64,000 bases of DNA, taken from Cyanophora paradoxa CCMP329. Taxonomy: Eukaryota > Plantae > Glaucophyta. Within the stretch, counting starts at the first letter, position 1; the number at the start of each line of letters is the position of its first letter. Of this stretch, positions 1,483 through 58,633 are shown piece after piece. Made by a program: the position numbers and the translations under genes. Under the pieces are notes generated by a model. It was not told the origin of the DNA and did no database searches. It saw only the letters and a program-made list of their open reading frames with translations. Location of the stretch: assembly GCA_004431415.1 (NCBI GenBank), contig QPMI01000127.1, positions 1 to 64,000 on the forward strand. Reading direction: 5' to 3'.

Positions 1483-1960
1483 ATGGCAGGAAGGATCGCC
1501 GAAAAGGTTCTGCAACGGAGATTCCTCGAAAGGAATGCAAGCACCTTCCGCAGTCCGGACCTGGTTGGACTGAATGGTGGACTCGGAGGGGATCGGCTCA
1601 CCCCTCAGATCTTCGGTGCGCTCGCCGAGCTGAACAAACTCGGGTTCGTTACAACAAACTCCCAGGTAGGAACCAGCGGTCCCAATACGCGGCAGAGGGC
1701 CTACCTGTATGGTATAGTCCTGGGAAGGAACGCAGCAGAGGCCATTGAGCGCATGGGCTTCGAAACGGACCTGCTTGTGGGAGTGTCTCCTGCAGATGAC
1801 GATAGCAGTGGGATACATTTCCCTGTCACGATCCAGAAGGTAGACAACAGCCCCTATTGGGACTTGTTCTTCCGCGGCGAGGATGGCGCCCCAACGCGAA
1901 GATTCGGGGAGCGCTGGGGGAGAAGGCGGTTGCCGGGAGAGTGGATGGCCGATACATACA
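1483..1960 (+). CDS. DUF6919-like hypothetical protein (3' end lost at a junction)
   Basis: LAELNKLGFVTTNSQVG...RQRAYLYG motif; reading becomes unnatural after about 2050. Confidence 0.45.
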
Positions 1961-2059
1961 CCCTCGGTGTGCGCCCCACCAAGCTCCTCGTCTACGCCTC
2001 GGTCCGCGACGGGGGCGTCGTCCAGTACTTCGGCGCGGGCGTCATCTACCAGAACGTGG

Positions 2060-2743
2060 CCCCCCCACTACACGGCGCCCTCGCCCGCCGTCTTCCCGGC
2101 GCTCCGGCGGCTGACCATCCCCGTCTCGGGCTGCCCCCCGGTCGAGCCCCTCCTCTTCGCGTGCAACGGGCTCGCCAAGCTCGCGGCCCTGGAGGAGCTG
2201 CAGGTCGTGCTCGGCGACGCGCCCAGCCTGGCCCTCCTGCCCGAGCCGTACGGCATCGACGAGGTGCTGCGGGAGGCCGAGGAGCACGCGGCGGCGCCGG
2301 CGATGCGCCTCCCGCCCTTCCTGCGCCGCCTCCAGATCGACGCGCGCATCAGCACCTTCGCCCTGCGTCCCGAGATGGAGCCCGCTGCCTCCTTCCTCGC
2401 CCTGGTCCGCATCGTCGCCCTCCTCGTGCGGGGGGCCCGCCCCGGGCTCCGGGAGCTTTGGATCCGGCTCCTGTTCGTCGACAACCCCGAGGCGGCCGGT
2501 TTGGGTGCGATTCGGCCTGAGGCCCTCCGCGCCTCGCTCGGGCTTGCAGGAGCCGGCGTCGACACCGGCGCCGGTGCCCTGCCGCCCCCCTGGGCAGCCC
2601 CGGCCCTCGATGCCTGCCCCTCGCTCCGGAGTGTGACCGTGGACGCCGCGTGCACGCATGCGGCGGCCGGCGTCTTCAACATCGCCTCGGGCGGCCCTCC
2701 CCCGCCCCTCGAGCTCATCCCCCTCTCCTCGGCAGACAGATAG
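2060..2743 (+). CDS. LRR-like protein C-terminal fragment (F-box/LRR type)
   Basis: Repeated FPALRRLTI, LAALEELQV, FLRRLQI, PGLRELWI, CPSLRSVTV motifs; no start of its own. Confidence 0.55.
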   Translation, partial: PPHYTAPSPAVFPALRRLTIPVSGCPPVEPLLFACNGLAKLAALEELQVVLGDAPSLALLPEPYGIDEVLREAEEHAAAPAMRLPPFLRRLQIDARISTFALRPEMEPAASFLALVRIVALLVRGARPGLRELWIRLLFVDNPEAAGLGAIRPEALRASLGLAGAGVDTGAGALPPPWAAPALDACPSLRSVTVDAACTHAAAGVFNIASGGPPPPLELIPLSSADR

Positions 2744-2820
2744 ATCAGCCGGAGGCCGAGCCTCGAGCTCGCATTTGTAGAATATATATATCTTGACCCC
2801 CTGTGTGAGCGAGAGATATA

Positions 2821-3510
2821 ATGGGCTTTACAGACTTCACGTACTCTAGGCGGCGGTACGGTATACCTGGCAGGCTGTTTCCAGACAGCGAGGGCTCTCT
2901 GCTCAACATCTGGCTCGATCTGTACCTCATGGATTCGCCGGGCGAGGGGGGGACGATCGTGACGGTGCACATCCACAGAGAGGACGGGCTCCCCATCGCT
3001 GATGCGCGGGCCCGGGTCTCAAAAGATAGCACTGATATCGTTATCCTACAGCTGACCAACTACAACTGGACGGGACCTCTTCGCGAGTACACAGAGGGGT
3101 TAGGGCGCTTGATGGTCAGGGCGATTATCGATGCTGCGATCGAGCACGGGTTCGTGGCAGACCCATCCCAATCGCGCCTCCTAATTGAGTCCGCCGTACA
3201 AGGTGCCGCCGAATACTATCGGGGCGCATACGGCGTTCGGCCCACTGTGAGATCGTATCAAATGTTCAATCGCTTCCCGATGGAGGGTCCTCTTCAGGTT
3301 GCAATGCGCGGAGTCCAACACTGGGCGCGCCGTTTGTATGACCCCCCGTACGAATACACAACCCACAACGACTTCGAGATCAGCGGCGAGTACGTCCAGA
3401 TCTCAGAGCCCCGTACACCGAACAGAATACCGCCGGCAGCCGGGATGTACGGCACGATCGCCCTGCGCCCCCGCAAGCCCCCCCTTGACCGGAGCATGTT
3501 CCCGATCTAG
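2821..3510 (+). CDS. putative GNAT-fold acetyltransferase-like protein
   Basis: Complete 229 aa ORF after AT-rich spacer; EGLGRLMVRAIID...GAAEYY resembles GNAT motifs A/B. Confidence 0.45.
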   Translation: MGFTDFTYSRRRYGIPGRLFPDSEGSLLNIWLDLYLMDSPGEGGTIVTVHIHREDGLPIADARARVSKDSTDIVILQLTNYNWTGPLREYTEGLGRLMVRAIIDAAIEHGFVADPSQSRLLIESAVQGAAEYYRGAYGVRPTVRSYQMFNRFPMEGPLQVAMRGVQHWARRLYDPPYEYTTHNDFEISGEYVQISEPRTPNRIPPAAGMYGTIALRPRKPPLDRSMFPI

Positions 3511-5249
3511 GCGCCCTAGCCTTTGCCGATCGCGCCGTCCAGCAGGAAGACGACCGTCTCATCGGTCACCTCGAAGGGCCGCGTGCCGTCGTGCGGTAAA
3601 TGCCACCTGGCCCACGTTCCGTCGAGCGTTCGCTCGTGGATGACGACCACGGCGACCTGCCGGAGCGCGAATTAGCGTGCGGCCGGCCAGCGCGCGCACA
3701 TGCGCATCATATGACCGCACCGCGGGCCGGTGCCCGAGGGACCCCACCGCCACGTGGAAGAGGCCGCCGTCGCCGCCGCCGCCCGCGGCGGCCGAGTAGC
3801 GCACGGACGCAAGCGCGGAGTCCAGGCGCACGGCCCCCGGGTGGCCAGGCGCGGGGCAGCCGGGTCGGAGAGGTCGATGACGTGGGCGGCGGGAGGCCGA
3901 CCGCCAGCGGGGGCTGCTGCTGCTGCTGCTGCTGCTGCTGGCCGGCGCCGCCCGGCTGGCGGCGGCTGGTGAGGGAGAGGACCGTGTCCGCGCGGACGAG
4001 AAAGGAGGCCGCGAACGCGAGGTCCTCTGGCGCGCTCTCGGGTCGCAGCACGTACTGGAAGAGCGCCCTGCGCCGCTCGTGGTCGGGCGCCAGGCGCTGG
4101 CGTCGCCTCTGCGGTTCGGCCGCTGCGGCCTCCTCGGGGGCCTCCTGCCGCAGGGGCGCGCCGGGCGGGCCGCCGGGGTCGGCCGGCAGGACGAGCACGC
4201 GGTCTAGGGTGCCGCGGCGCGCGGGCACGGGTGCAGGGGTCCCTCCGTCCCGCCGCCGCTGCACTCGACGGAGACGAGGGCGAGCGGGTTGTAGGTCGTG
4301 CGGCCGGAGCCGCCGGGGGCCGCCACCAGGCGGTCGACGACGTAGTCCGAGCGGGGGGCGTCGGCAACGCGGGCGTCGATGCGGACTTGGTCGGGCGTGT
4401 ACATCGGCTGGAGGCGCGGGTCGCGGGCCGCGACAGGGCTCGATCGTGTCCGGCCGCAGCTCGGCCCGCAGCGGGGGCAGGGCCAGGTGGGGCGGCGCGT
4501 TCGGGTCGGCGTCCCGCGGGGGCCCGCCGGCGGTGCCGTTGTTGAGGATGAAGCTGGCGTCGCCCAGCGTGTAGCCAGGGACGACGGGGGGCGCGGTCTG
4601 CATGACGCGCTCCGGGTCCGGGTGCAGGATGGTGGCGGCACGGTCGGGGGCTGTGTAGGCACCCGCGGGGGGCGGGGGCGCGACCTGCGCACCGACGGGG
4701 AAGAGGGGCACCTGGTCGCGCAGGGGGAGCTGCATGGGCTCCCGCATGCGCGCCGGAACGGCGCTCCGGTCCATCGGCCCGGCGCCCAGCGCCGGGTCCG
4801 GGAGGAGGTCGCGGAAGGCGGTGGGCAGGTCCGAGCCCCATCCTGGCGGAAGGCGAATCCGCCGGGCGCCCCCGCCCCGGCGCCGGCGCCGAACGAGAAG
4901 CCCATGGCCGCGCGGGCGGGGCGGGGCGGTCGGCGGCCCGCTCCGGGAGCACCTGCACGGGGGCGACGAGGCCGGCGACCTGCTGGGGCGCCATCTCGCG
5001 CTTGGCCACCTGCGTGTTCTCGTCGGCGAGCGGGTGGCGCCCCGCCCACACGGAGAAGGTCTCGGCCGGGCGCAGGTGGTCGCGCTCGAGGGAGCGCATC
5101 GCGACCGAGGCGCCGAGCGCGAGACGAGGTTGACGTTCGCGTCGGCCCCGCCAAAGTCGAGGATCCCCTGCCCGTCCTTCTCGGAGCTCGCCGCCATCTT
5201 GCGTGAGGACACACAAGCTGGCGGGCGGGGCGGGCCCCGTGCCGCCGCC

Positions 5250-5511
5250 GCCACAGCCGGGCATGTACGTGGTCTCGGTCTCCAGCCCGGCGGCACCAGG
5301 GGACCACTGGGCGGACATCATCTCGGTGGACCGTTCGGGGGGGGTCCGGTTCTTCGTTGGCAACGGGGTGAACCCCACGAGCCCCCAGACGTCCGGGAGG
5401 TGGGTGGTCTCAGGCAACCCGGCGGGCGGTCTGTCAGTGGGGGTGGTGGGCGGTCCGGAGAGGGCGGCGGTGGATACGGAGCTCAAGTACACGGCGATGG
5501 CGCTTTACTAG
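5250..5511 (+). CDS. hypothetical beta-rich protein C-terminal fragment
   Basis: PGMYVVSVSS...DTELKYTAMALY* natural reading frame. Confidence 0.4.
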
Positions 5512-5543
5512 AATGCCGCGATGGCGCCAATTCAAAGTTTCTT

Positions 5544-6113
5544 CTAGGAGGCCGCGGCCTCCGGCATCCCGATGATGCAATCCGCCTGCTCGCAGGCCGG
5601 CCAGATGCAGCAGCCGGCCGGGATGGGAGCCCCGTCCTGCCCCCCAAGAGCAGCCAGGACAGCGGCAAAATCCTCGGCGTGCAGGGGGAGCTCCCGCTCG
5701 ATGCTGAACGTCTGCGCTGGGATAGGGTAGACCCCGTTGTGCGCATGAAAGACCTCGTAGCACCTGCCGCCACTTTGCGCACGCGGCGACCCAATGGCCA
5801 CTATCGGGTGCGGAGGGGCCGGCAGCGGCTGTTCGTCGACGTGCCGTTCGAGGATGAGTGGGAAGATGGTACCGGCAACGAACGACAGGAGGCAGCCTGT
5901 CCCCGGGATGCGGGCAGGTACGGTCGGCATCTCCTGCACGTCAATGCGGATGGAAAGCTGCTCCCCCGCCCCGGACGACAGCAGCGGCCCGAATGGCCCG
6001 GGGCACCGGCCCACGGCCGGCGCCCCCGTCGGGTGGAAGAGGAGGATGCGGCGGGCCGCCCAGTCGAGCCGGCCGTACAGGTTCGGCAGTGCAAGGACGT
6101 CTGAGTACGACAT
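5544..6113 (-). CDS. hypothetical protein
   Basis: About 190 aa apparently complete ORF with lower-GC upstream spacer. Confidence 0.55.
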   Translation of the reverse strand: MSYSDVLALPNLYGRLDWAARRILLFHPTGAPAVGRCPGPFGPLLSSGAGEQLSIRIDVQEMPTVPARIPGTGCLLSFVAGTIFPLILERHVDEQPLPAPPHPIVAIGSPRAQSGGRCYEVFHAHNGVYPIPAQTFSIERELPLHAEDFAAVLAALGGQDGAPIPAGCCIWPACEQADCIIGMPEAAAS

Positions 6114-6384
6114 CACCGCACGTTAGCGCGCCCCGAAAAAACGTCGCATCTCATCTCATCGCGAGCAAGCTTTAAGACATTTCATACGCGGCGGTACACA
6201 CACTCTGCACCATGTCTTCCGTGCTCGTCCGACCGGGCGCCCTCTCCGCCACCGACAGCTCCCTCCTCGCCGACTCCGTCGAGGTCTCCGGGGCCCTCGG
6301 GACGGCCCGGGTCGAGCGGGCCCCCTACGCGCCCTCCCCCGCCGTGGTGCGGCGCTTCGTGGCCCCCAACGAGCTCGTGCCCGG

Positions 6385-6496
6385 CCAGTGCTGGACGACG
6401 AAGGTTCCGTCCCGCCCCGCCCGCCTGAACTCCTCGATGGTCATGTGGCCCCCGAAGATCTGCAGAGCGTGCCGCGGCGGCGCCGGTCGGAGGGAC
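6385..6496 (-). pseudogene. VLTF2-like late transcription factor, fragment 3 (C-terminal)
   Basis: SLRPAPPRHALQIFGGHMTIEEFRR matches the NCLDV VLTF2 C-terminal motif PAPPR..L..FGG.MTIEEFR. Confidence 0.85.
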
Positions 6497-6844
6497 GTGC
6501 GGCGACGCCTGCGTGGCCGGCGACGAGGGCGGCGGGGCGGGCCAGGCGGCGGCCGGCGGGCCGGGCGGGGCGCGGGCCGGGCGCCGGCGCCGGGCCGGCG
6601 CGCATGGGCGGCGGCGGGGCCGTGGCGACGGGGGGGGTACGCTGGGTAGGGGCTGACGGCGGCCGGTGCCGGCATCGTCGTGCAAAGACACAGCATTCGT
6701 GTCCCAAAATTCGGGCGGCCCGTTAAACGCGCGGCCACGGCCGGGGCGATTTTTTGGACGCCCTCTTCTGTGCGTCGCATGTTCTTCACTGTCCTCGCGG
6801 CAGTGGTGTGCAGCCTGGTTGCAGTGGCAGCGGGGGTAGTCGGC

Positions 6845-7134
6845 ATGACCGCGCAAAGCGAGTACAAGACCCGCTCTGGGAGGGCCGTACGCGCCCCCGA
6901 GCGCTTTGAGCCGCAGGAGCAGGTGGAGGATGATTACGGCGAGGAGGAGCACGACGACGAGAGCATGCACAGCTCAGAAATCAGCTCCGAGATCTCGTTG
7001 GAGAGCGAGGATATGGAGGTCGAGCGGACCATCAGGGAGGAGGAAGGGGGCGAGGACGACGACGGTGACGACTTCATTGTGGAGGATGAGGACGAAGACG
7101 AGGACTACACGGACGAGGATGAGGATGAGGAGGG

Positions 7135-7175
<41 letters not shown>

Positions 7176-7230
7176 GGGAGTCGGAGTCGGAATCGGGGGG
7201 CGGCAAGCCGAAGCGTGCCCGCGCGACCGC
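6845..7230 (+). CDS. conserved NCLDV acidic protein (TRSGR..K/R.PER family)
   Basis: YKTRSGRAVRAPERFEPQEQVEDDYGEEEHD followed by a long D/E tract, partly a (GAT)n microsatellite. Confidence 0.65.
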
Positions 7231-7379
7231 CGCCCGGGCCCGGCCCCCGAGGGGACCACCGGGCTCCCCGTCGTGCGGGACTGGCCCCGCCCGGGCCCGC
7301 CCCCCTCGGGGGGCTCCCTCCTGCGCCTCCACCGGGCTGTCGTGCGTGGCGGCCCCCTTGCGCCGAGCGCAAACCTCTC

Positions 7380-7899
7380 GGCCGCCTCCGTCCGGATCCA
7401 CGGCGCGATCGCCGCCCCCGCCTACGCCCCCGCCCAGGTGCAGGCGCGGCTGGGGCCCCAGCTCTGGCGCCCCTACGATGACCCCGCGCCCGGCACCACC
7501 GCCGCGCTCGCGTGGGACGCCGAGGCCGCCGAGCCGGCCCTCCTCCTGGTGGGGGCGGGGTCGGCCGCCGCGGCCCCTCGCGTCTACTGCTGGGTCGACT
7601 CGGCGCTGCCGAACATGGTGCAGCGCGCGGTGATCACGGGGGCGACGGACCTGTCGCCGGCGCCGGTCCCCGTCGTCGACGCCCCCGTCTCGGGATCGGC
7701 CCGCCCGGAGTGCCTCGCGTGCATGGAGCGCCCCCCAGCGCTGGCCATGATCCCGTGCGGCCACGTCGCCCTCTGCGCCGAGTGCTGGGAGCCCTACGTG
7801 GCCTCGCGCGCCCGGGCCCTCCAGGAGCCCGCCGCCGCCTGCCCCTTCCCCGGCTGCGGCCGGGCCGTCGAGGGGCGCATGGCCGTGATCCTGCCGTGA
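7380..7899 (+). CDS. C3HC4 RING-finger protein, C-terminal fragment
   Basis: CLACMERPPALAMIPCGHVALCAECW...CPFPGC. Confidence 0.8.
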
Positions 7900-8064
7900 T
7901 CATGAGGGCCGGCGCTCGAAGTAGATGCGGAAGTGTTCGTGTTCGTGTGCGAGTGTGCATATACGACGCACCGCGGCCGGCCGGCGGCTCAAGGAGGAGA
8001 TGGACGACATCCTGGGCAACTAACTCTACTGCCACCTCGAGCACTCCCTGCACCTCGCCTGCCA

Positions 8065-8460
8065 GCCGACCAGCAGGCGCGTGAGGCCGGCGTACGCAAG
8101 GTAGTATGGATCATAGAAGGCCTGGAGCGCGCCGGGGTTCTCCACTGCGACATCAATATGGGAAACGTCTGCATTGGTCCAGAGAACCCCCGACTGGACA
8201 TGTCGCGGGCCGTACTGATCGACTTTGATGCATCTCGGTTCAAGGGCGAAGACTACATGGGCAGATACCGCGAGACAGAGCTTGCACTGGTTTGCAGGAG
8301 CGGGGAGACGGAGCTCATCGCAGCTGCCTGCAGCCTCATGTCAGTTGGGTTCGGGGTGTCGCCGACAACGGATCCGGCTAATCCGGATTGGGAACGCGAA
8401 ACGGTGTACCAGGGAACCCGCCCAGCGGTTCTTGGGGCGCTCCAGCGCGCCAACTACAGC
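8065..8460 (+). pseudogene. protein-kinase-like C-lobe fragment
   Basis: LERAGVLHCDINMGNV...VLIDFD (HxD-x4-N and DF motifs). Confidence 0.75.
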
Positions 8461-8862
8461 GTGGAGCAAACAGGTTTTCCCTGCCCCTCCGTGCACCCGT
8501 CCAGGGGGCTGGAGCCCGGGGGGCAGCCGTTGGTGCACGTGCCGTCGGTGGAGCAAACGGGCTTCCCCTGTCCCTCTGCACACCCATCGAGGGGGTTGGA
8601 GCCGGGGGGGCAGCCGTTGGCACACGTGCCGTCGGTGGAACAGATGGCCCCCTCGGAGCATCCATTGAGGGGGTTGGAGCCGGGGGGGCAGAGCTTGCTG
8701 CTATCAGCTGGGGATATCGATGCGTCAGACTCCAAAGTCTGGTCGTCCAGTGCAATCAACCGGTTCGCAATCCCCCCTGATCTGGGATAGATCCGGAGTG
8801 CAAAGACCACCGCGAGCACTATTGCCGCGGCCAGTAAAAAGCCGAGAACTACCGCCTTCATT
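8460..8862 (-). CDS. membrane-anchored Cys-rich repeat protein, N-terminal fragment
   Basis: Signal/TM MKAVVLGFLLAAAIVLAVVFAL then CSTDGTC.NGCPPGS.PLDGC repeats; truncated mid-repeat. Confidence 0.75.
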
Positions 8863-8907
8863 GTAGTCAGTTCTCCTGAGAATATTTTATCTTGCGCACG
8901 GGGCTGT

Positions 8908-9395
8908 TCAGGGTACAAGCTGGGTCACATCGGCGATGAGTTGGAATGAAGTTACTTGCGACCAGTCTGATGTGTAGGTGCGGACCCGAAGCTCGAATTC
9001 ATGCCCCGCCTGGAGTGTAATCATGTGGGGGCCTTGGGGTTTCCAGGTCTTCGCCCTGAGTGCATAGTATCCTAACTGCACTTCTTCGAACCTCTGCGTG
9101 GCACCTGTTGTGCGATTGATGAGCTCGATCATGAAGTTGCTGAAATTTTTGCCGTATTCTTTGAAGCCGATGTCGTATTCGTACTGCAGTGCAGAGCCTG
9201 TTGTCTTCTGCACCCATCGAACCCCGCGAGCTGTAAAAATACCCAGTTCCAGGTTAAACGTGGAGTGGTAGACGCCCGTGTGTCGAACCTTCTCAGCGCA
9301 CCGCAGATTCTCGAGCTTGAACGAATTTGGAGGGCATCCGTTTGCACAGACACCGCCTGGATAAACGCATATCGGGCCCTCCAGGCAGCCCGGCA
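8908..9395 (-). CDS. Cys-rich repeat protein C-terminal fragment with beta-rich domain
   Basis: GCLEGPICVYPGGVCANGCPP then a lower-GC domain ending ADVTQLVP*. Confidence 0.6.
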
Positions 9396-9598
9396 TCTGC
9401 CCGTTGGACGCCGGCAGCACGGCGAGCTGGCTGGGCAGCCGCTCCGGCCCGGAGTAGTAGCAGAAGAGCGGGACGGGCACGGGCATTGGCACACACCGGC
9501 GGCCGACAACAACCTCGCCGGCGGGGACGCGGCGCCGGCCGCGGGGAAAAATTTTTTGTTGCGATCATCACACCTCCTCAAGCGCTCACTGACTACCC

Positions 9599-9892
9599 AT
9601 GCCGCACGCCCGCAAGAAGACGACCAGCCGCCGGCTCGCGACCAGCACCACCGGCCTCTCGCGCCGCACCGTGCTCGGCCACAAGTCCAGGGGCGGCGTT
9701 GCCCTTAAGACCACTGGCGGACTCACCGCCAAGGACCTCACCCGCAACAAGCACGGCGAGATCGTTTCCGTCAAGCGCCGGCGCCACGCCGCCAAGCACC
9801 TGAGCGAGTATAACCGGGCGCTGATCAAGGCGCGCCGCAGGCTCGGGATCACGGGCTTCGTCCCCGTGGGGGCTCGGTTCTATATAGGCTGA
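9599..9892 (+). CDS. DVNP: DVNP (dinoflagellate/viral nucleoprotein) homologue
   Basis: KTTGGLTAKDLTRNKHGEIVSVK core plus KARRRLGITGFVPVG tail; highly basic 97 aa; AT-rich upstream element. Confidence 0.85.
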   Translation: MPHARKKTTSRRLATSTTGLSRRTVLGHKSRGGVALKTTGGLTAKDLTRNKHGEIVSVKRRRHAAKHLSEYNRALIKARRRLGITGFVPVGARFYIG

Positions 9893-10257
9893 ACTGCCTC
9901 TGCTTGTGAGAACATGAATCTAGTGTAGTCCAGTTTCAGTCGACAGCGCCCTGTACTGGACGATCCTCAGCCCGGACGAGATGGATCAAACGAGGCTCAC
10001 CGTGCCCGCAGGGCCGAGGACGGTGTGGCTCGAGACGGTCAGGACGGCCGCCCCGGCCGGCGGGTGGCAGCGGCTTCCGGGCCAGCGCACGGTCATGGAA
10101 ACCGCCCGGGCCCGGCTGCCGCCGCCGGCGCCCCCGAGCGGCGCGAGAAGGCGCTCGTGATCGACCGCCTCGAGCTCGAAGCATCGGAGCAAGGGCTCGG
10201 AGCGCTCGCCAGGATCAACGTGCGCGTCGGGGAGGAGGCGTGGATCCGGGGCACCGT

Positions 10258-10369
10258 CCCCGCAACTTCAGCGGGTTCCGCATCTTCGGTGTCATCGGGC
10301 GGCGCGGCTCCGGGAAGACGACCCTCATGCTCGACCTCATGTACCACTACAGGCACATCGAGTCGGGGG
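10258..10369 (+). pseudogene. A32-like packaging ATPase, fragment 1 (Walker A)
   Basis: RIFGVIGRRGSGKTTLMLDLMYHYRHIESG. Confidence 0.85.
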
Positions 10370-10824
10370 CAGCACCGGTGCCAGGCGCCCTTTGGAAGGT
10401 GATGCGCGCTATCCAGGCGCGCTCTATGGCGGGGTCCCCGAATAGATCCCCATCCTTCCCCAGAAACTCTTTGTCTTGTTCATTCGCGGAATCCAGAAAC
10501 GGCTCCCGGCCCGCCCCCGCACGCACTGCATTGAACAGCCTCAGGATCGTCATAGCCCCCTCGCCGGCATTCTGGAAATCGCGGAAGTTGAACCTCGTAT
10601 CGCCTGACCGGCTGTCCTTGTATCGGACGTAGAGGCGAACCGCCGCTATCTCCTGCTGGACCGTGCGAGCGTCTGCAGTCTTCTGAGCGCTTCCGTCAGC
10701 ACGTAGGGCTCCCTGAAGGACAGGGGGTCATTCCTGCTGCGGCGCACCCCAACGCCCGCGAACCCAATAGCCTTAGCACACTCGGGCGACAAGAAGGTTG
10801 TTGCACCCTGTATTTCCTCCGGCC

Positions 10825-11100
10825 CCGAGGACCTGGGGCGGGACGAGGGACACCGAGCAGCCCATCACGTAGAGCGTCTGGATGTACTGGAGGATCGCCT
10901 CGCGCGACTCGCCGTCCGCCGACGCCCAGAGGCCCGCGACGTCCAGGGAGGCGCCCCCCGCGAACGGAATTGGGGGATAGGACCTGTCGGAGAGGATCTC
11001 GGCGCCCCTTCCGGCCAGGAGCATGTCGCCGTGGGGCTTCAGCGCCTGCACGAAGGCCTGCATAGGGGCGGTGGGGCTGCGCGGCCCGCTTCTGCGCGAA
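10825..11100 (-). pseudogene. conserved NCLDV hypothetical protein, internal fragment
   Basis: LWASADGESREAILQYIQTLYVMGCSVSLVPPQVL resembles the algal-virus motif AxWQYLQTLYMLG...IP. Confidence 0.6.
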
Positions 11101-11359
11101 GTGCCACGAGGGGCTGGGCAAGGGCGGCGACGAAGAGGCGGCCGACGACGACGACAACGGTGGCGGTGAAGAGGAGGAGGAGGAGGGGGAGCATGAGCAG
11201 GAGCCGGCGCCGGCGGCGGGGGCGGACGGCACGGCGCGCCCAAGCCACGATCCGACTGGGGCAGCAGCACCGCCACCGCCGCCACCGCCACCGCTGCCAC
11301 CGCCACCAACGGGCACTGGGCGCCGGAGGCCGCTGCGGGTGGCCAAGGGTTCGGGCTCA

Positions 11360-11539
11360 ATGACAACTGCGGGCTACGGTCGGCTGCTGGGGAGGACTGT
11401 CACGGCCCGCTCGGTCCACCCGGTGATGCCCGAGCTAATCGGGAAGCCCGTGCCAGAGAGCACCGAGCTGCACTGCTGGCACTGTGTGCACGCCTTCAAG
11501 GGGCGGCCCGTCTCGCTCCCGTACCGGCAGGAGCGCGAG
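11360..11539 (+). pseudogene. VLTF2-like late transcription factor, fragment 1
   Basis: PESTELHCWHCVHAFKGRPVSLPY (CWxCxHxF zinc-finger half). Confidence 0.85.
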
Positions 11540-12191
11540 GTCAGGCGGCAGGCAAGGCATGGCGGCGCCCTGAGGCCCCCGCCAGCGCCCCAGACGGCCG
11601 CGGCCGCCCAGATTGCCATCCCGTCGCGCGTGTCGTCGCCGGCCGCCTCCGCCTTGCGCAGGGCCGCCGCCGCCGCGAGCTGATGGCCTCCGTTCTCGGC
11701 GGCCGGCGCCGCCGGGCCGCCCCGATGGCCTTGAGCTCCTTGTTGACGCGGGCGATCTCCAGGCGGGCGCGGGCCTTGGCGACCTCGAGATCGAGGGCAG
11801 CGCGGGCCTTGGCGGCCTCGAGCTCCTGGGCGGCACGCTGGGCCTCGCGCTGGGCCTCGGCCTTGGCGGCCTCGAGCTCCTGCTGGAGGAAGCTGTCGGC
11901 CCGGTGCGCGCGCGCACCGCCCGGTCGGTCCGTCCGCCCGTCCTTCCGTCACTCATGACGTCACACAGGGTCCGCCCTCGCCGTTCGACTCGCTCGACGA
12001 CGCTCCTGCTGCAGGGGATGCCCGACTGGTTCGACGGCGCCGGCGCCGCCATTGCCGTCGGGGCGCACCACGATGCGGTCATGCGGGCGCCCCCGCCGGG
12101 CTCGCTGCAGCCGGTCCCGTTCCACGACGGCGATGGCGGCGCCCCGGCGCCTCCGGTCCCGGGCCTGCCCGGCGCCGGCGCACGGCCGGGC

Positions 12192-12330
12192 CGCGAGCTC
12201 CCGCGCTTCATCTGCATGGGGGTCTTCTGCTCTTGGTCGTGCGCCAAGGCCTACTGCATCACGTCCGGGAGCGTTCACATGCAGCGCGCCCTGTCGTGGC
12301 TCGGGCTCCTCTACCGCCGAACGACGGGCG
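12192..12330 (+). pseudogene. VLTF2-like late transcription factor, fragment 2
   Basis: RFICMGVFCSWSCAKAY...LLYRRTTG (GxFCSWxCxKAY). Confidence 0.85.
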
Positions 12331-12434
12331 AGCAGGGCTCGTTGTCGCCGTCGCAGCCTCTGCCGCCCTCGTGGTGGCCATGGCGGCGACGCTTATGCAC
12401 CTGTGCCGCCGGCAGGGGCGGCGGTGATGGGGCT

Positions 12435-12730
12435 CGCTGCTCCTCGTAGTCCCTGAGGTACTTCATGCTATCCAGGAGCCAGTCGATCTCACCCGACGCC
12501 GCGCGCCGCGCCTCCTCCTCGAGCTCCCGGCGGCGCCCGGCGAGCTCCGCCAGGCGGTCCTTCAGCGCGCGGCGGCCAGGGCCGGCCTGCCCGGCCGACG
12601 CCGCTTGCAGCTGCCCCTGGACATCCTGCATCTCGCGGTCCAGCTGCCGGGCCTCCTCCTGCGCACGCCTCTGCACATCCTCGTAGTTCCGCATCTTCTC
12701 CTCCATGCTAGCGTAGAGGCTTGTCTGGTC
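12435..12730 (-). pseudogene. VLTF3-like late transcription factor, N-terminal coiled-coil fragment
   Basis: Coiled coil ending EIDWLLDSMKYLRDYEEQR, similar to the E.dYLLD.skYifDY motif preceding the VLTF3 zinc ribbon. Confidence 0.55.
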
Positions 12731-13020
12731 GTCACGAACCCGCCGCCGCCTCCGTACTGGACCCTCGTCACGTCGCTGCCTCCGCCACCCGCCCCCCAGA
12801 GCTTGACGGTCGCGCTGGTCACTCCGGCGGGTACGGTCCACGTCTGGTCCGCCCCGGTGTAGCTGAAGATAAGCTTCGTGACGGCCGTGGCGGCGCTCGC
12901 CCCACGGAAGTAGGACATGAGCATGGTGGTGCGGCTCGAGGGGACGCTTGGGGCGTTCGCTGAGGCGCCTACGAAGGAGCCCCCCTTGAAGAGCTGCGAG
13001 AGGTAGACGGGCCCCGTGAT
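12730..13020 (-). CDS. glycine-rich-domain virion/surface protein fragment (paralogue 1)
   Basis: FSYTGADQTWTVPAGVTSATVKLWGAGGGG. Confidence 0.75.
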
Positions 13021-13095
13021 GCGACGGTGACGGTGGCCGCGGCAGTGGGCGCCATGGGCGTGCGTATGTATGTATTGCATGCACTCTGAATAACA

Positions 13096-13362
13096 TCACG
13101 ACGCCGCGTCCGCGCCGGCGCCCGCCCGGGCCCCCGCGCCCAGCGAGATCTCCCCCGTGCCGACCTTGATCGCCGCCGCCAGCATCCCCAGCTCCTCGCG
13201 GGCCTGGGCGGCCATGAACTCCTCGACCAGCGGCGCCAGGGGCGGCGGGAGCGTGGCCCAGACGTCGACGCGCGCCATGAAGGCGTAGGACTCGCCGGCG
13301 CGCCTCTCCTCCAGCACGAAGGTCGGGCGGATGCCGAGGAGCTCGGCGCCGGCCACGGCCAG
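13096..13362 (-). pseudogene. conserved NCLDV hypothetical protein, C-terminal half
   Basis: GAELLGIRPTFVLEE...ATLPPPLAPLVEEFM; appears to continue 34310-34604. Confidence 0.55.
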
Positions 13363-13635
13363 CGCTACGAGGCGGAGGCCGCCGCGGAGTACGAGAGCCG
13401 CTCCGGTCAGATCTGCCTCCAGTTCGGGCTCATCTCCCACCCGGACCCCGAGCTGGCGTGGCTCGGGGGCTCCCCTGACCGCGTCACCCTGGCGGGGCGC
13501 CTGGTCGAGATCAAGTGCCCCTACAAGAGGGCCATCACGCACCAGTGCCCCAAGCACTACTACGGCCAGGTCCAGATCCTTCTCGAGTGCCTCGACCTCG
13601 AGGTCTGCGACTTTGTCCAGTACAGGCCGCCTGCC
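13351..13635 (+). pseudogene. YqaJ-like viral recombinase/alkaline exonuclease, internal fragment
   Basis: HGQRYE...FGLISHP...WLGGSPD...LVEIKCPYKR...HYYGQVQILLECLDLEVCDFVQYRP; startless so missing from the ORF track. Confidence 0.9.
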
Positions 13636-13999
13636 CTCCTCTCGGCCCTGGTCTCCGAGCTCCCGCCGGACGACGCGGCGCAGATCAGCTCGCTCGTGCC
13701 GGTGGGGCTGCGGCTCCAGGAGGCGGTGCGCAGGCAGCGCGAGGAGGTCATCGTGCGCATGGTGGCCGAGCGGCGCGTCCTGGAGCAGCAGGCGGCGGCG
13801 CACGCGGCGCGGGCGGCGGCGGCCGAGAGCAAGCGGGCCTACTACGACGGGCTGCGGCTGCGGAGGAGGGTTCAGGCGGATTCCGAGTCGGATTCGGGTC
13901 CAGAGTCGGAGGAGGATGGGAGTGCCCCCTCGTCGCCCAAGCGGAGGCGTCGCTCGGCAGCCCTGGACACCCGCGCTTCGGAGTAGGAGCTCTGTAAAG

Positions 14000-14270
14000 A
14001 ACACACTAGATTCGAAGACACGAAGACCCCTAGAGACACGACCGCCAAGACTAGATGCGAAAGAGACACGTAGCTAAAGTCAAGACCACCGGTTGCGAGA
14101 GGAGATTGCCAAGACTAGATGCGAAAGAGACACGGAGCTAAAGCCAAGACCACTACTTGCGAGACACGTAGCTAAAGTCAAAAGACCACGGAGATTGCCA
14201 AGACTAGATGCAGACAAGCCACAGCTTCCAAAGACACTACCACAACTGGCTGCTAGACAGCACAGAGAGA
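14000..14270. repeat. A-rich degenerate minisatellite
   Basis: gccaagactagatgcgaaagagacacg(t/g)agctaaag(t/c)caagaccac at about 14044 and 14108, partial copies at 14161 and 14190. Confidence 0.8.
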
Positions 14271-14494
14271 TGCCGGCAGTGGCCTCACGGGTCCTGCGCC
14301 TTCGGATCCGCCGCCCTCTCCTCCCCCCTGAGCCTCGCCAACTCACGGTTCGCGGCATCGAGCTCCTGGCGGAGCCGGAGGATCTCCTCGTCGCGGGGGT
14401 CCGCCGGGGCCGGCGCCATCATCAGCGCCGAGGCGCCCGGACCGGCGCCCGCCGCCGCCGCCGCCGCCGCCTCGGCCGGCGCCGGCGCCATCAT

Positions 14495-14840
14495 CCGCGT
14501 TGCTGCCCGTCCCCTCGCCCGCAGCGCCCCCCGCATCCTGCGTGCCACCTCCTCCTCCGGCGCCGCTGGTACCCCTGGTGCCAAACCCTGTCAGCCCTCC
14601 CGCCCCGCCGCCCTTGGCCGAGCTGTTGCCGCCCGCCCCGCCACCGCCCGCCGTGATCAGATCGGCACCGCCGGAGCGTATGGCCGACCGCCCGCCGCCG
14701 GAGCCAGCGTACTGCGTCCCGTTCATCGCCCGACCGCCCCCGCCATACACCACATTTGCGGCCTGGGTACCCGCCGCGCCAGGCCCACCCACCATGACAG
14801 TGAGGGTCTCTTCCGGGACAAGGGAGAGCACACCGGAAAC
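14495..14840 (-). CDS. glycine-rich-domain protein internal fragment
   Basis: VSGVLSLVPEETLTVMVGG...SGGGRSAIR...DLITAGGGG. Confidence 0.7.
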
Positions 14841-15060
14841 TCCAGCTCCCCGATGAACTCGTCCTGCCTCGCCGTGCTTGCGAGCAGGGGCACGAGCGAG
14901 TCGCTGAATAGGGCCAGCGCGGGCACGACCTGACCGTCCCAGAGCGCCGCGTCGCGCGCCACCTCCTGCACGCACACCGCCCCGCTCCCGTGGTGGTACT
15001 GCACGTGCAGGCCCGTAGGCCGGTCCAGGAGGAAGAGGTAGGCCTGCAGCTGGATCGCTC
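14840..15060 (-). pseudogene. second YqaJ/PD-(D/E)xK-like nuclease, C-terminal fragment
   Basis: IQLQAYLFLLD...VARDAALWDGQVVPAL resembles the Q-x-Q-x-Y and RD..LW motifs. Confidence 0.55.
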
Positions 15061-16714
15061 GACGGCAACGCGTGGACCTCCCCGGCCCCCGGCGGCACCT
15101 TCGAGACGGGCCGCATCTCCCTCTCGACGCGCGGCGACCCGGGCGCCGCTTCGACCTTCGCGGCGTTCCTCGACGAGGCCCTCCCCGACGGGCCGGCGCC
15201 CCTTGCTGGCGTGTACCTCCGCTCCCTCTCGGTCTACTACCAGATCGGCGCCCAGACAGTCCGGGCGGCCCGCGGCCGGGGGCCGTCCTCGGCATGCAGC
15301 TGCGGGCGCTTCTCTCGCACGCGGACCACCTGCGGCAGCTCGCGGGCGAGGGCGGCGGCGGCATGACGGTCGGCCTGGTCGAGCGCTGCCACCTCTCGTC
15401 GCAGGAGGTCTTCGCAGAGTACTGGCACGGGCGCGGCGACCTCTCCGGCCCGGAGCGGGACCTGCTGCGGGAGGCCACCGCTGCCCTCGCGCCCCACGAC
15501 CCCCGGGGCAAACGGGCTTCGGCGGCCGGTCGCCGGCAGCCCGGGCCCCCCCCACCCCGACGACCAGCTCTGGTTCGAGAGGGCCTTCCCTCGCCTGATG
15601 GAGATCGCGAACTACCGCGTCCCGTTCCTCATGGCCAAGCCGGCGCGGCCGCCAAGGCCGCTGTTTGAGTACCCGCCCCGGCCCCCACCGCCCTCTCAGA
15701 GTAGGGTAAGTCTACACGGCATGTCGTCGTCCTCCCGTCAGCAGCTGCTCCGGCCCCAGTCCGCCCCGGCCCCCCGCGGCGCCCGTGGTTCGCATGCACA
15801 TGCCGGAGGCGGCCCCGCGCCCCCGCTCCGGTCCGGGCGCTACGCCCCGCGCGGTGGGGCCGGCGGAGGCCGCCCCCCGCACCCCCCGCATTACATCGAG
15901 GAGTACGACGAGGAGGACATCGAGGGGGACGAGGACGGAGACGACGACGATGATACCTCCTCGATTGGCGGCAGTGACCTGGCGGACGCGTTCCTCGGCG
16001 ACTTCTTCGAGCACGTTCTGACCTCGTCAAAGGGGCCTGTGTCGGCCGCAACGGCCTGGGCCGCCGATGATTGGGCCCGCGGGCTCGCCGACTACCTCGC
16101 CGAGGCCGGCACCGAGGCCGGCATCGACGAGGTCGTCGCCGTTGCCGAGCTCATCGAGAAGTCAAAGGGGGTCGCGTGCTACATCGGGGCGATGTACGCT
16201 GGCTTCGTGAAGGAGGTCAACGGCGGCGGCGGTGCCCCCAAGCCCGCCCAGTCCCAGTAGTATCCCAGCACGCGGTCGCGCCAGGCCCCCGTGTTTCTCT
16301 GCAGTGTGCTGTGTGTGTGTGTGTGTGTGTGTGTGCGTGCAAACAGGCACGGCATGCTGCGGCCCCTCCGCCCCCAGAACCGCACGCTCACCGAGGCCGC
16401 CCTTGATGCCCTGTCGCGGTTCCTTGAGCTCCCGCGCCTCCTCTCCGCATCCCCCGCCATCGAGAGGGAACTGCGTGAATCCGAGGGGAGGCAGAGGAAG
16501 CTCTTCCGGCGCGGGCGGGCCTTCGCCCTCCTCGACGAGTTCAATGACCTCGTCGAGAAGGTCCGCCTCCTGGCGGCGCAGGCAAGTGCCGACTCTGACA
16601 CCGCCCCCCCGGGCCGGATCCACGGGGGGGGTCCGGTGGCTGCCGACGCCGCTGCCCTCTGGGAGCTCGCCCAGTCCGCGTGGCTCCCGAGCACCTTCCG
16701 CCTCCCCCTCGGGC

Positions 16715-17052
16715 CCGTCTGCGCCCAGTCTGGCAGCAGCGCCGCCTGCTCGGCGCACACGGACAGGTGCACCAACGGCTGCCCCTTCACCGCCCCCTGG
16801 CGGACGGCGTGCGGCTGCGAGGCGGGGCCCCCGCGGAACGGGAACGCCCCCTGCCCCGCGGGGGACGCCGCCTGCGCCGCCACCTACTGCGCCAACGGCT
16901 GCGTGCCGGGCGAGTTCCGCACCGCGTGCGGCTGCGAGGCGAGCCCCGTCCCGGCGTACCTCGACTCGCGCACCTACTGCGCCTCGGGCTGCCGGCCGGC
17001 GGAGACGAGGGACCCCGTGTCGGGGGCGTGCAGGCTGCCGCCCCGCAGCTAG
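16715..17052 (+). CDS. Cys-rich repeat protein C-terminal fragment
   Basis: CTNGCP, CANGCVPG, RTACGCE repeats. Confidence 0.65.
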
Positions 17053-17293
17053 GAAATATTGTCGTCGCGATGATGAACCAATCCAAATGGCCACCGCCGC
17101 GCGGGCCCTCGCGTACGCCGTCCTCGCCGTCCTGGCCGCCCTGGTGGCCGCCGGGCTCTACGTCGCCCTGGTCCTGCGGTGGGACCGCGCCCGCTTCCGC
17201 GCCGAGTACTGCCGCCGGTGGTGCGGCAGGTGGCCGCGCCTCTGCGTCGGCGTCGTCGGCGGCGGGTGCGGCCCGGTCGGCGGCGGGGCCGCC

Positions 17294-17339
<46 letters not shown>

Positions 17340-19116: not shown

Positions 19117-19303
19117 CGAGCCCGTGTCAGGCACCTTCAGCCTAAAGTACCTGCTCTCCTTCACAAGGGCATCCAGCCTCTGCAACTCCGTGGACCTCTA
19201 CTTTGCCCCCCATTTCCCGATCATCGTTGAGTACGCGGTCGCGAACCTCGGCCACCTCAAGTTCTGCCTCGCCCCGCGCCAGGGCGACGTGGACATGGGT
19301 TAG
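19117..19303 (+). pseudogene. PCNA: PCNA sliding clamp, C-terminal fragment
   Basis: GTFSLKYLLSFTRASSLCNSVDLY...FPIIVEYAVANLGHLKFCLAP (NCLDV-type ending). Confidence 0.9.
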
Positions 19304-20580: not shown

Positions 20581-20760
20581 ATGGCCGCCTCCGACCGCCT
20601 GCTCCGGCGCTCGCTCCAGGCCCTCTGGGGCGACGAGGGGACGGCCGACCTCGTCGTCGCCGCCGCCGGGGGGCTCCTCCTCCCCCTCCACTCTCGAATC
20701 GTGGCGGGCCGCTGCGCCTCCCTCGGGGGGCTCGCCCGCCTCGCCGCGGCCGCGGCCAGC
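20581..20760 (+). pseudogene. BTB/POZ-domain protein N-terminal fragment
   Basis: LWGDEGTADLVVAAAGGLLLPLHSRIVAGRC fits the BTB D-x-x-h...H-x-x-h-h-A-x-R pattern. Confidence 0.55.
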
Positions 20761-21434
20761 TCCCCTCGCCGTCCGCAGCCCCCCGGGCCGCCGCGTCTGG
20801 GCTCGCGCCGCGGCCGCCCTTGTCGAGGGGCTGCAGCTGGCGGCGGAGCTCGAGCCCGATGCCGACGCAGCGGCCTCGGCGCTGGCGTTCCTGTGCGCCA
20901 TCGAGGCGGCGGCCTGCCGCTTCCGCCTCCCCGCCTCCGGCGGCGAAGTCAGCGGCGGCGACAACGACGAGGACGACGAGGAGAAGGAGGCGGCGGCCGA
21001 GTTGGCGATCGACCCGTACGCCCCCTGGGTCCCGGAGCCCCACCGCCTGCCGGCGGGCGCCGCCCGCTACCTGGTGCCCCCCCCGCACCCGGGCCTCCTC
21101 ACCCTCGAATCGTGGCGGGTCCCCGAGCCCGTCTTCCGCCGCCGCGTCTGGGCCTGCCTCGCCGACCTCCTGCCCGAGGACCCCGCCCGGCGCCACTGGC
21201 CCCTCTTCCTCGGCGAGGACATGCGCATCGCCGGCGGCGACTGGATGCACGCGTGCCTCATGTCCGTGCGGCCCCGCGCCCTCGGCTGCAAGAGCTTCCA
21301 GCACTTCGTCAAGCGCTACTACGGCTCCTGCCGGGGCCACGAGCTCCGGGTCTACTTCTTCGGGTCGGCCCCGGACCGCGACACCTGTTGCGCCCTTGGT
21401 TTTGTGTGCCCGGGCCGGGGTCCATGGCCAGCGC

Positions 21435-34604: not shown

Positions 34605-36088
34605 CGCGCAGTGGTGGTGGCGGCGGGGGGGCATGCCTCCGTCGGTCGGTTCGTCGCTTTTTCGCAGTACCCCGGTAGGCGCGCGGTCCGTCGGTCGGTC
34701 CGACCCGCCCACAGCAAGCTTAGACATGGCGGGCGCCGGCGGCGGCGCGGCGGCCTCGGTACCCTCTTGATGGCGAGGGCGAGCCGTTTGCCGCCGGGGG
34801 TGCCCACGGCATCGAAGGCGGCGGCGACCTCCTCGGCGGCCTTGAACAGCTGGAAGAAAGAGACCGTCACCGCCTCGGCCCTCTGCAGGAGGAGGAGGGC
34901 GGCGCCCGCGGCCCGGCTGGGCGCCGTCCCGCCGCCGGCCCCCGCCATCAGGGCGCCGGCGATCGCGCTCACCGCCGGCAATTCCGGCGGCGCCACGCCG
35001 TAGATCGCGACCGCCAACGAGACCGCCGCGCCCCGCCCGACGCAGAGGGAGACCCGCCTGCTGCCCACGGTGCCGATGGCGTCGAAGGCGCCGGCGACCG
35101 CCGAGATGCTGTGGGCCAGCTTGGCGAACGCGTCGGTCGCCCGCTGGACGGCCGCCACCTCCGGCCCCGCCTCCGCCAGGAGGATGCTCTGTACCACGCT
35201 CACCAGCTCCCCGCGAGACCGGATGATGATCGGAGGCGGAGGCGGGGGCGGGGCTGCCTGCTGCTGGGCCGCCTGCGCCTGGGCCTGGGGCTGGGCCGCC
35301 TGCGCCTGGGCCACCTGCGCCTGGGCCCGCGGCTGGGCCGCCTGCGCCTGGGCGCCCGCCGGCGCTGCCACTGCCACCAGGGCGAGGGCCGCGGCCGCCG
35401 CCGCAGCGGCCTCCTCCCGTGCCCGGGCCGCCACCCGCTCGAGGAATGTGCCCTTCAGGCTGTGGAGGCCGAGCCGGAGCCCCCCGCCTCCATGGCCTCC
35501 GCGGCGCGCAGGGGCCCGAGCTCGGCGGCGAGCGCGGCGTAGAAGGAGCGGGTGCTGCCCCCGCGGGGGAGCATGAGCGCGTGGACCGCCGCGACGGCCT
35601 CGTCCGTCGTGATGCGGTCTTCCGCATCGAGCCGGCCGTGGAGCTCGCCCCCGCCGTGCCTATGCCGCCCCCGGGCCCGGACCCGGGCCTCCCCGCCGGC
35701 CTGGTCCCCGGGGCCGGCACCTGGACCGCCGTCCACCACGTCTCATGGCCGCATCAGCACGCTCGAGGAGCGTGTGCGCACCCTCGAATCGGAGCTCTCC
35801 GACACCAAAACAGTCTCCGCGCTGGAGGCAGCCCTCCCCCCCCTCTTGCGGGAGAAGCCGCCCGCTGGCCCCACCCGGCCGCCGCCAATGCCGCCGCCGC
35901 CGCCGGCGGCCCCTTCGCTGGCCCTGATCGCAATTGAGGATGCCCACTCCTCGGCGTCTGTGTCGGGCGGCACGTAGAAGCAGATGTATGTGTCACCTCA
36001 ATAGCCACACACACGCGTACGACTACACGGGGGGGTGGGTGGGCGCCACGGGGGCGGTAAGCGGCTCGGATGGCTCGTCGGCGAGTGG

Positions 36089-36541
36089 GGGGGTCATCTT
36101 CTCGCCGACCGAGTCGCCGGCGAACCCCACCTGGGCCAAGCACTGCCCGGGCCTCTTCATCCACTCCGAGTACGACCCCGAGGTCATCCGCGGGATCGTC
36201 AAGAACCAGCAGCGGATCGCCAAGAGCGGCCGCAAGCCCCCCGGCGTCTTCATCGTGCTCGACGACTGCATGTACAACAAGAACGCGATCTCGAACGACA
36301 AGTACCTGCGCTACGTATTCCAGAACGGCCGCCACAACGGGATCCACCTCGTGATCGCGGCCCAGTACCTCATGGACCTCGGCCCCGCCCTCCGCGGCAA
36401 CATCGACGTCATATTCGCCTGCTCCGAGAACAACGACACCACGCGCAAGAAGATCTGGACCAACTTCTTCGGCTATATGGACTACCTCGCCTTCAAGCAG
36501 GTCTTCTCGCAGGTGACGCAGGACTTCGGCGTCCTCGTCGC
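36089..36541 (+). pseudogene. A32-like packaging ATPase, fragment 2 (Walker B, arginine finger)
   Basis: GVIFSPTE...LFIHSEY...FIVLDDCMY...FQNGRH...QYLMDLGPALRGNIDVIF...RKKIWTNFFG...TQDFGVLV; lacks Walker A and the C-terminus. Confidence 0.95.
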
Positions 36542-36639
36542 TGCTGCCAGGCTGGGAGCTCTATCGGGCGAGTGGGGGCCCGGCCCGGTCGGGTGGGCTC
36601 TAATAATTTATTCCCCCCCCCTAAGAAGAAGGGTGGTAT

Positions 36640-37050
36640 AGGGTACTCGCGCGGCACCGACCCGGGCGGCGGCGGGTAGGGGCACCAGTTGTACATCTTC
36701 ATGACATAGATGCTGAATGCCGGGTCGAGCTGGATCAACTGCTTGGCATGCGCCTGGGCCTCCTCGACCGTCGCGAAGGCGCCGCGAATCTTGAAGGCGA
36801 AGGTGCTTCCCTTCTGCGTCCCAGGGATGTGCGCATCCTCGGGGGTGACAACCGATACGAGGGCGTACTGCAGGCCGGGGACCTCGATCGGGTCCGGCAC
36901 GGGCCGCACGCGGACGCCGGGCCCGGTGGGCTTTGGCTCCGGGAAGTTGGCCTCCGGCCTCACGTCCACCCCCGTCGCCTCACGGAGCATCTCCATGGCG
37001 GCGCCGGGGGGCAGGAAATCCTGGGAAGTGCCGTCGTCGCCGCCGCTCAT
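36640..37050 (-). pseudogene. DUF5832 conserved NCLDV protein, N-terminal fragment
   Basis: VPGLQYALVSVVTPE...FKIRGAFATVEEAQAHAKQL...DPAFSIYVMKMYNW. Confidence 0.8.
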
Positions 37051-58582: not shown

Positions 58583-58633
58583 GTGCGCCCCGCCCCCGGC
58601 GCCGCGGTGGACGGCGGCGCCCGGGACTGGCAG

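Follow-up and report, generated by a model that had tools for sequence, protein, structure and literature searches.

The first 64,000 nucleotides of the forward strand of contig QPMI01000127.1 from the glaucophyte alga Cyanophora paradoxa CCMP329 (assembly GCA_004431415.1), referred to here as the window, carry a VLTF2-like gene that lies in three pieces, one of them inverted and out of order. The window is likely a giant endogenous viral element, i.e., a giant-virus genome integrated in C. paradoxa, and this kind of element is already known from the species, as the main text of PMC12344493 describes. The explanation that we consider probable is that the VLTF2-like gene was cut, inside the integrated virus, by repeated reciprocal crossovers at two to six shared bases, and that its present layout is a dead record of these exchanges and not a code.

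Three pieces of one VLTF2-like gene

A pattern search returned 120 viral loci, 77 of them with a full open reading frame (ORF), and a profile built from 69 distinct intact proteins was searched against the 1322 six-frame ORFs of the window. Exactly three of these ORFs matched significantly, the next best having an independent E-value (i-E) of 2. Piece 1 (11360..11539, plus strand) carries the first CxxC pair, and its conserved part (11444-11539) matched profile positions 35-65 at 11444-11536 (i-E 6e-8); piece 2 (12192..12350, plus strand) carries the FCSW motif and matched positions 68-118 at 12201-12353 (i-E 2e-12); and piece 3 (6385..6486, minus strand) carries the FGG motif and matched positions 113-152 at 6498-6379 (i-E 2e-10). 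Joined in the order 1-2-3, with an X at each break, the pieces gave a single gapless domain of 136 bits, and the remaining five of the six possible orders split into two or three domains. An earlier reading made from the letters alone (the sequence-only reading) had proposed these three pieces, one of them inverted, in this order; they lie where it placed them and translate as it wrote them, and the reconstruction aligned to the homologue profile with no misalignment. Its layout stands and two of its piece limits would shift, as piece 2 most likely runs to 12350 (and not 12330) and piece 3 starts from 6486 (and not 6496).

The reconstruction displays the hallmarks of VLTF2-like proteins, namely two CxxC pairs, the second in FCSW, followed by AP..L..FGG..I.EFR at conserved spacing; no intact full-length reading frame is present, as the gene lies in three pieces on two strands. 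The CxxC to FCSW spacing is 31 (31 or 32 in 54 of the 68 homologues counted), and the FCSW to FGG spacing is 51 (the same in 40 of 65 counted). Because these spacings are the commonest ones in homologues, no residues appear to have been lost at either break. Judged from its sequence, the set of three pieces is one gene from which nothing was lost at the two breaks. The G+C content of third codon positions (GC3) is 0.94 in each piece. The last ~70 positions of the profile, a variable C-terminus, were without a match in the window; piece 3 is cut again near 6385, where it abuts a plus-strand gene fragment, and its continuation was not found in the window. When piece 2 was used as the sole query, no close relative was found in viral contigs or among longer proteins. 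VLTF2, or A1L-like, is a name that we presume, and the 69 homologues carry none. Pfam returned only a weak zf-FCS match for the pieces, and in the Atlas the nearest clusters (0.85-0.90) hold mostly viral proteins without names.

Upstream, piece 1 continues as an open frame to 11066. Followed from 11360 towards 11066, this frame passes acidic and proline-rich stretches and reaches a cysteine motif near 11075, at which point it abuts a minus-strand fragment; this region is either a long N-terminus that was cut once more or another fused fragment.

The layout is also found in short-read data. In 20 DNA runs under one organism label, 98-99% of the sampled words of 5500-13500 were present; all of these runs possibly come from the source strain, so that beyond the layout in that material they lend no independent support. 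In both of the DNA runs compared over 1500-21400, single contigs span 9912-12918 and 3954-7076 at a depth of 54-69, like their neighbours, and they differ from the window by single-base indels only; all four VLTF2 junctions are crossed unchanged save for such indels. In both of two further DNA runs, a single contig carried piece 2; neither a second copy (>=80%) nor a different join was seen among the contigs, which drop rare forms. Depth was flat along the stretch in short-read contigs, as compared among the contigs of this stretch. One-base insertions were seen in the contigs of both runs at 3838, 4235, 4835, 6554, and 11719, beside runs of G or C; the window sequence is likely in error at these positions, which shifts reading frames. 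Four additional runs chosen by label gave only 32-69-base matches and no evidence on expression.

Shared words at four breaks and probable reciprocal exchange

Four breaks in the window could be set in register, and at all four the same word of two to six bases lies on both sides: CGCGAG and CCG at breaks 1 and 2 of the VLTF2-like gene, GGGGG in a packaging ATPase, and GT in a glycine-rich-domain gene. At break 1, CGCGAG is present at 11534..11539 and 12192..12197 on the plus strand, as the sequence-only reading had reported, and sits within a 17-of-24 match. The word occurs 51 times on the plus strand, and the chance of a 6-mer so near a profile-defined break is ~0.01-0.05. The insert between the two sites (11540..12191) has no visible terminal repeats and is itself a mosaic, again as reported, made of cut gene fragments of both strands: a minus-strand fragment of a coiled-coil gene (from ~11900 to 11540), then an intron-like stretch at 11904-11968, and, at 12006-12191, a fragment of a plus-strand gene. 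The break 1 leftovers, that is, the stretches displaced from the join, read in frame and without a stop on the plus strand.

At break 2, the inverted pair CCG (12348..12350 on the plus strand, 6484..6486 on the minus strand) lies in a 12-of-16 match; the sequence-only reading had seen a repeat at the first break only and overlooked this one. The leftover flanks here comprise an ATG and a proline-rich N-terminal part (6487..6675, minus strand) and a hydrophobic stretch followed by a basic tail and a stop (12351..12427, plus strand). Read in one frame, they lead from the ATG at 6675 through the proline-rich part, the hydrophobic stretch (19-residue mean hydropathy 1.75), and the basic tail to the stop at 12425-12427, and this is suggestive of a second gene.

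The ATPase, which we take to be the A32-like packaging ATPase, is 36-42% identical to 80 viral loci kept of 584 confirmed in an alignment search; as the sole query, the ATPase piece found no close relative in viral contigs. Its Walker A piece (10273..10368, plus strand) ends in GGGGG (10364-10368), and its middle piece (36088..36545, plus strand) begins with GGGGG (36088-36092); the last ~60 residues were not found in the window. The register of the break is fixed because P0002, a second ATPase copy of the same species under another contig name (83% identical), is whole there. P0002 stops matching further on, which suggests that related viral insertions, shuffled in either case, number at least two. 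The leftovers are the body of a minus-strand gene (10369..10650) and the last ~22 codons and stop of the same gene (36023..36087, minus strand); both lie in the best minus-strand frame by base composition, and the stop follows 22 codons on. Positions 36093-36539 are 99% identical to a public gene model, P0001, labelled Cyanophora paradoxa. As a side observation, P0001 (35988-36600) is chimeric: its first ~35 residues are antisense to the end of another gene, and an invented intron closes the model.

In the glycine-rich-domain gene, the first piece (12734..13011, minus strand) ends at GT (12735-12734), and the next piece (14676..14840, minus strand), which lies upstream of the first, begins at GT (14840-14839). 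The register was set by an in-window paralogue at 22869-22306. The leftover at 14841..15055 (minus strand) is the C-terminal part of a nuclease-like gene, and its stop falls exactly at the swapped junction; a paralogue search for it returned only the window's own gene model. The swap places the stop of this nuclease-like fragment 72 residues past a motif, compared with 78 in two identical relatives and 110 in the DNA as it lies, a weak comparison because the remaining eight of ten loci are poorer matches or unrelated. A separate observation concerns the only long near-identical repeat in the window (12783-13013 and 22638-22868; 231 bases, 95%), which is the N-terminal part of two glycine-rich-domain genes; further members lie at 41416-41890 and 33841-34326.

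Compared with random site pairs given 6-18 bases of positional freedom, the summed shared-word length was 16 (null mean 7.7, P = 0.002), and the summed imperfect similarity score was 26 (null 9.2, P = 0.0002). The leftover flanks fit together as a second gene at three of the four breaks (break 2, the ATPase, and, weakly, the glycine-rich gene), and for this reason the exchanges look reciprocal. No common motif was seen by eye at the eight crossover sites, and they share no flanks. No Pfam family of recombinase, integrase, or transposase was found in 412 ORF scans (112 + 150 + 150) of the window; these scans reach down to 133 amino acids plus coding-like segments and cover window DNA only. The two marks of a split gene restored by a recombinase, a recombinase near the sites and a common recognition motif, are therefore both absent from what was searched. 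A pairing of breaks by coding score alone was also tried and was dropped, as the known pairs were not singled out among 2.5 million candidate pairs.

Extent and age of the shuffling

Among 11 genes with a reference, seven are clearly cut: the VLTF2-like gene, the ATPase, YqaJ, PCNA, DUF5832, an unnamed ATPase neighbour, and the glycine-rich gene. Two are borderline (DVNP and DUF6919), and two look whole (a DUF3592 gene and an acidic gene at 6863-7105). The YqaJ-like exonuclease fragment (13351..13647, plus strand) has an N-terminal third that was not found in the window; PCNA (19121..19297, plus strand) retains its last 59 residues only; the DUF5832 fragment (36652..36894, minus strand) is missing its C-terminal half and faces the ATPase as in viral relatives; and the unnamed neighbour (10827..11063, minus strand) covers profile positions 47-121 of 162 and adjoins the ATPase in 21 viral loci. 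A segment at 27413-27312 was considered as the N-terminus of the gene at 11063-10827 and was dropped for want of profile support. The DVNP-family gene (dinoflagellate/viral nucleoprotein; 9599-9868, E 2e-12) possibly lacks its last residues. Motif scans for the missing ATPase ends and the DVNP end gave nothing convincing.

The 14 pieces scored, 1025 codons in all, contain no stop; GC3, measured in six pieces, ranges from 0.88 to 0.98, and the CpG observed/expected ratio is 1.04, with no depletion. Because rearrangement outran point mutation, a recent burst is suggested.

Explanations of the layout

The crossover explanation would work as follows. Each event would swap partners at a shared word, such that a-X-a' and b-X-b' become a-X-b' and b-X-a', and the word would stay at both new junctions because the partners were swapped at it. 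Break 2 would be a single 5.86-kb inversion (6487-12347), which holds one ATPase site and not the other, so that an older ATPase inversion would now appear as a direct pair; two overlapping inversions would in this way account for break 2 and the split ATPase together. By coordinate bookkeeping, pieces 2 and 3 become adjacent once 6487-12347 is reversed, which also leaves the two ATPase sites in inverted orientation to each other; inverting a second time then reunites the ATPase and likewise its leftovers. The sites of break 1 and of the glycine-rich gene remain direct pairs, for which more events are required; for break 1 these might be one excision, or more overlapping inversions through the mosaic insert. 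The candidate activity would most likely be a cut-and-swap that needs only compatible ends, and not a dedicated site-specific recombinase. Topoisomerase subunit exchange, or the rejoining of staggered compatible ends, could give two-way swaps with two to six shared bases, and microhomology end joining keeps one copy of the word and usually trims the ends.

However, it should be noted that several observations weigh against this explanation. Break 1, on which the sequence-only reading had centred, is the only one of the four without demonstrated reciprocity: 11540-11720 scores better as the end of the minus-strand coiled-coil gene in six of six sub-windows, the flank at 12006-12191 reads best on the plus strand, and reciprocity is not shown there because the flanks score best on opposite strands. 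At break 2, the frame of the second gene depends on the one-base insertion at 6554 in the short-read contigs, and the proline-rich flank scores about equally in a plus-strand frame. The null comparison covers only four breaks in register with uncertainty windows chosen by the authors, and CCG (P 0.34) and GT (P 0.48) are individually within chance. The leftover genes have no homologue that proves their joined form. The 64 kb yielded no partner for YqaJ, PCNA, DUF5832, either ATPase end, or the VLTF2 tail, and since most missing halves are not there, some loss at breaks is possible. No responsible enzyme was found in the window. Finally, the rearrangement was probably a short burst, and we infer its timing, at or soon after integration.

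Several of these points, the missing partners and the unpaired flanks of break 1, would be accommodated if the incoming viral DNA had been shattered and re-ligated at random by end joining at integration (chromothripsis-like), with reciprocity arising partly by chance in GC-rich DNA with open antisense frames. Such an event would also fit the density of breaks, the lack of point decay, and the short microhomology; we nevertheless consider it unlikely, as the word lies at both junctions in all four breaks, the motif spacing is intact, the leftovers pair in three of four, and two-way swaps should be rare where many ends are free. For break 1 taken by itself, the 658-nt mosaic may have entered as a whole, in the form of captured fragments or of a small circle, in which case CGCGAG would be a target-site duplication. 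The 6-base direct repeat within the 17-of-24 similarity and leftovers that are not clearly one gene are in keeping with this, but terminal repeats are not seen, the contig is unbranched at single-copy depth, the ORF scans yielded no transposase family, and the insert consists of the same kind of cut viral genes as its surroundings, which makes a unit insertion improbable. The sequence-only reading had further noted that the stretch begins with GT and ends with AG, and its removal would join pieces 1 and 2 in frame; with trans-splicing to piece 3, the pieces could then be exons joined in RNA. The GT and AG are formally there, but the acceptor is GAG and the stretch is 658 nt long, whereas all six of the intron-like stretches selected by eye end in CAG and measure 55-80 nt and the mean in the host is 86 bp (PMC6704402, in the portion available), and it has neither the GT..YAG form nor the host-like length of a spliceosomal intron. 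No usable GT/AG in register exists at break 2, where no AG precedes piece 3, or at the ATPase break. The available text of PMC12344493 and its preprint describes viral regions as methylated and methylated C. paradoxa genes as mostly silent. The GT..AG at break 1 is probably chance, and joining in RNA is hardly credible. Scarcely more weight can be given to an origin of the pieces from different paralogues or to an assembly chimera, for which at least two related viral ATPase copies in the species and the one-base indels against short-read contigs might be cited; this is already largely refuted, as the pieces tile the profile without gap or duplicate, share the same GC3, and have junctions that short-read contigs cross.

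The sequence-only reading had likened the layout to the pointer-flanked scrambled segments of ciliate germline genomes. The geometry bears out this likeness, since the joins of all four breaks in register carry a short repeat on either end; programmed unscrambling does not find the same backing. In its fullest form, an encrypted provirus would be shuffled without loss and reordered on induction by inversions and excisions at the shared words, a ciliate-style unscrambling in a virus, which we think very improbable. The same low probability applies to programmed reversible scrambling in general, i.e., a provirus stored shuffled and restored by guided or recombinase-mediated excisions and inversions, as is the case in ciliate germlines and for the nif genes of Calothrix. 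The breaks examined show no loss, the frames are stop-free, one inversion and one excision would restore the three pieces, and the restoration of nif genes is a precedent (10.1101/2023.12.11.571196, as far as its available text goes); the programmed reading stays alive at low odds because the geometry is loss-free. Against it, words of two to three bases cannot specify partners and no motif common to the eight sites was seen by eye; the window scans gave no family of recombinase, integrase, or transposase; the cut in the second ATPase copy lies at another place; the contigs of the two DNA runs show piece 2 in a single join; and the host is reported to be likely haploid, with mostly complete genes (PMC6704402, in part). 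Taken together, the crossover layout is expected with or without any programme to undo reciprocal swaps.

The surrounding viral element

The window has ~70% G+C and is a patchwork of short coding stretches on both strands. By Pfam, its giant-virus-type genes include DVNP, YqaJ, PCNA, DUF5832, and DUF6919; the A32-like packaging ATPase, the VLTF2-like gene, and two unnamed ATPase neighbours are further content of this type, and the Nucleocytoviricota-type gene cluster that characterizes a giant endogenous viral element is therefore present. A second ORF of the window matches another gene model labelled Cyanophora paradoxa at 95%. In the available text of PMC12344493 and its preprint, this species' giant endogenous viral elements are nuclear, carry clustered Nucleocytoviricota-like genes, and are hypermethylated. 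For the host genome, PMC6704402 reports, in the part available, 90% of core genes as complete, and host genes are on that ground not scrambled in general.

Several features of the window lie apart from the breaks. A sudden AT-rich stretch followed by simple repeats (63260-64000) is a possible edge of the viral region. Genes with short host-type GT..CAG introns lie inside the viral region at 43529-44175, 45738-46400, and 57377-59030, with 46010-46233 and 58209-58429 being paralogues (75% identical); these are either captured host genes or intron-invaded viral genes. Cysteine-rich repeat proteins with CxxGCPPG-type units are encoded at 8481-8702, 16700-17040, 44230-45673, 47557-48780, 49278-49421, 61881-62078, and 62580-63314, some as long unbroken ORFs of 245-408 residues and others as small fragments, and no convincing Pfam family was found for them. 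Short degenerate tandem-like repeats with AAGAC-rich units occupy a non-coding stretch at 14020-14220. A fragment at 30576-30905, cut at its start and without a match in a Pfam search, is presumably similar to the C-terminal region of a myristoylated virion membrane protein.

Significance and comparison with known systems

Silencing, point mutation, transposon invasion, and deletion are usually regarded as the ways in which integrated giant viruses die. If the crossover explanation is true genome-wide, the shuffling would be a distinct and fast way of disabling a provirus, whether the host is responsible or a viral enzyme turned on the virus itself, and the sequences of the junctions would give a lead to the enzyme. 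Surveys based on marker genes miss or mis-model such elements, as exemplified by the public ATPase gene model, a chimera of two genes.

In the scrambled germline genes of Oxytricha and its relatives, segments lie out of order or inverted, with a pointer repeat at both ends of the joins. The pointer-like repeats in the window are alike; however, the spacers here are pieces of other genes and not eliminated filler, and there is no evidence here of an unscrambled product, a second nucleus, or a template RNA. Pointer-flanked scrambled genes would here have arisen without unscrambling machinery, which bears on the origin of ciliate scrambling. Mosaic organellar insertions, scrambled transgene loci, and balanced chained rearrangements likewise consist of short pieces rejoined at microhomologies, probably in one burst. 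The joins in these systems are mostly one-sided and lossy, whereas three of the four joins examined here look two-sided and loss-free.

The nif genes of Calothrix NIES-4101 are restored by seven excisions and two inversions, according to the available part of 10.1101/2023.12.11.571196. As in the window, these genes lie in pieces on both strands and can be restored by excisions and inversions; in Calothrix, however, each event has a recombinase near its repeats and the restored DNA was observed, and neither was found here.

With respect to other giant-virus insertions, the C. paradoxa elements of PMC12344493 carry, like the window and under the same species label, clustered Nucleocytoviricota-like genes; the main text of that paper contains neither 'fragment' nor 'degrad' and does not describe shuffling at the gene level. 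The giant-virus insertions of Acanthamoeba (PMC12210455) and of Euglena (PMC12455990) show integration, silencing, and decay by recombination, duplication, and chimerism, in so far as the available texts describe them, and this decay takes place on a regional scale and involves mobile elements and duplications. In the window, by contrast, the cuts lie inside most genes, at words of two to six bases, with little duplication and no transposase found. The accessible text of PMC12210455 does not use 'scrambl', 'shuffl', or 'microhomology', and that of PMC12455990 does not use 'inversion' or 'scrambl'; a limited check of terms in a punuivirus latency preprint (2026) gave nothing relevant. No description of gene-level, reciprocal, microhomology-linked shuffling of such elements was found in titles and the starts of abstracts, a body of literature that includes few subscription papers. 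Altogether, the decay of giant-virus insertions by recombination is known, and what is likely new, as it appears, is a gene-level, dense, and nearly loss-free two-way shuffling.

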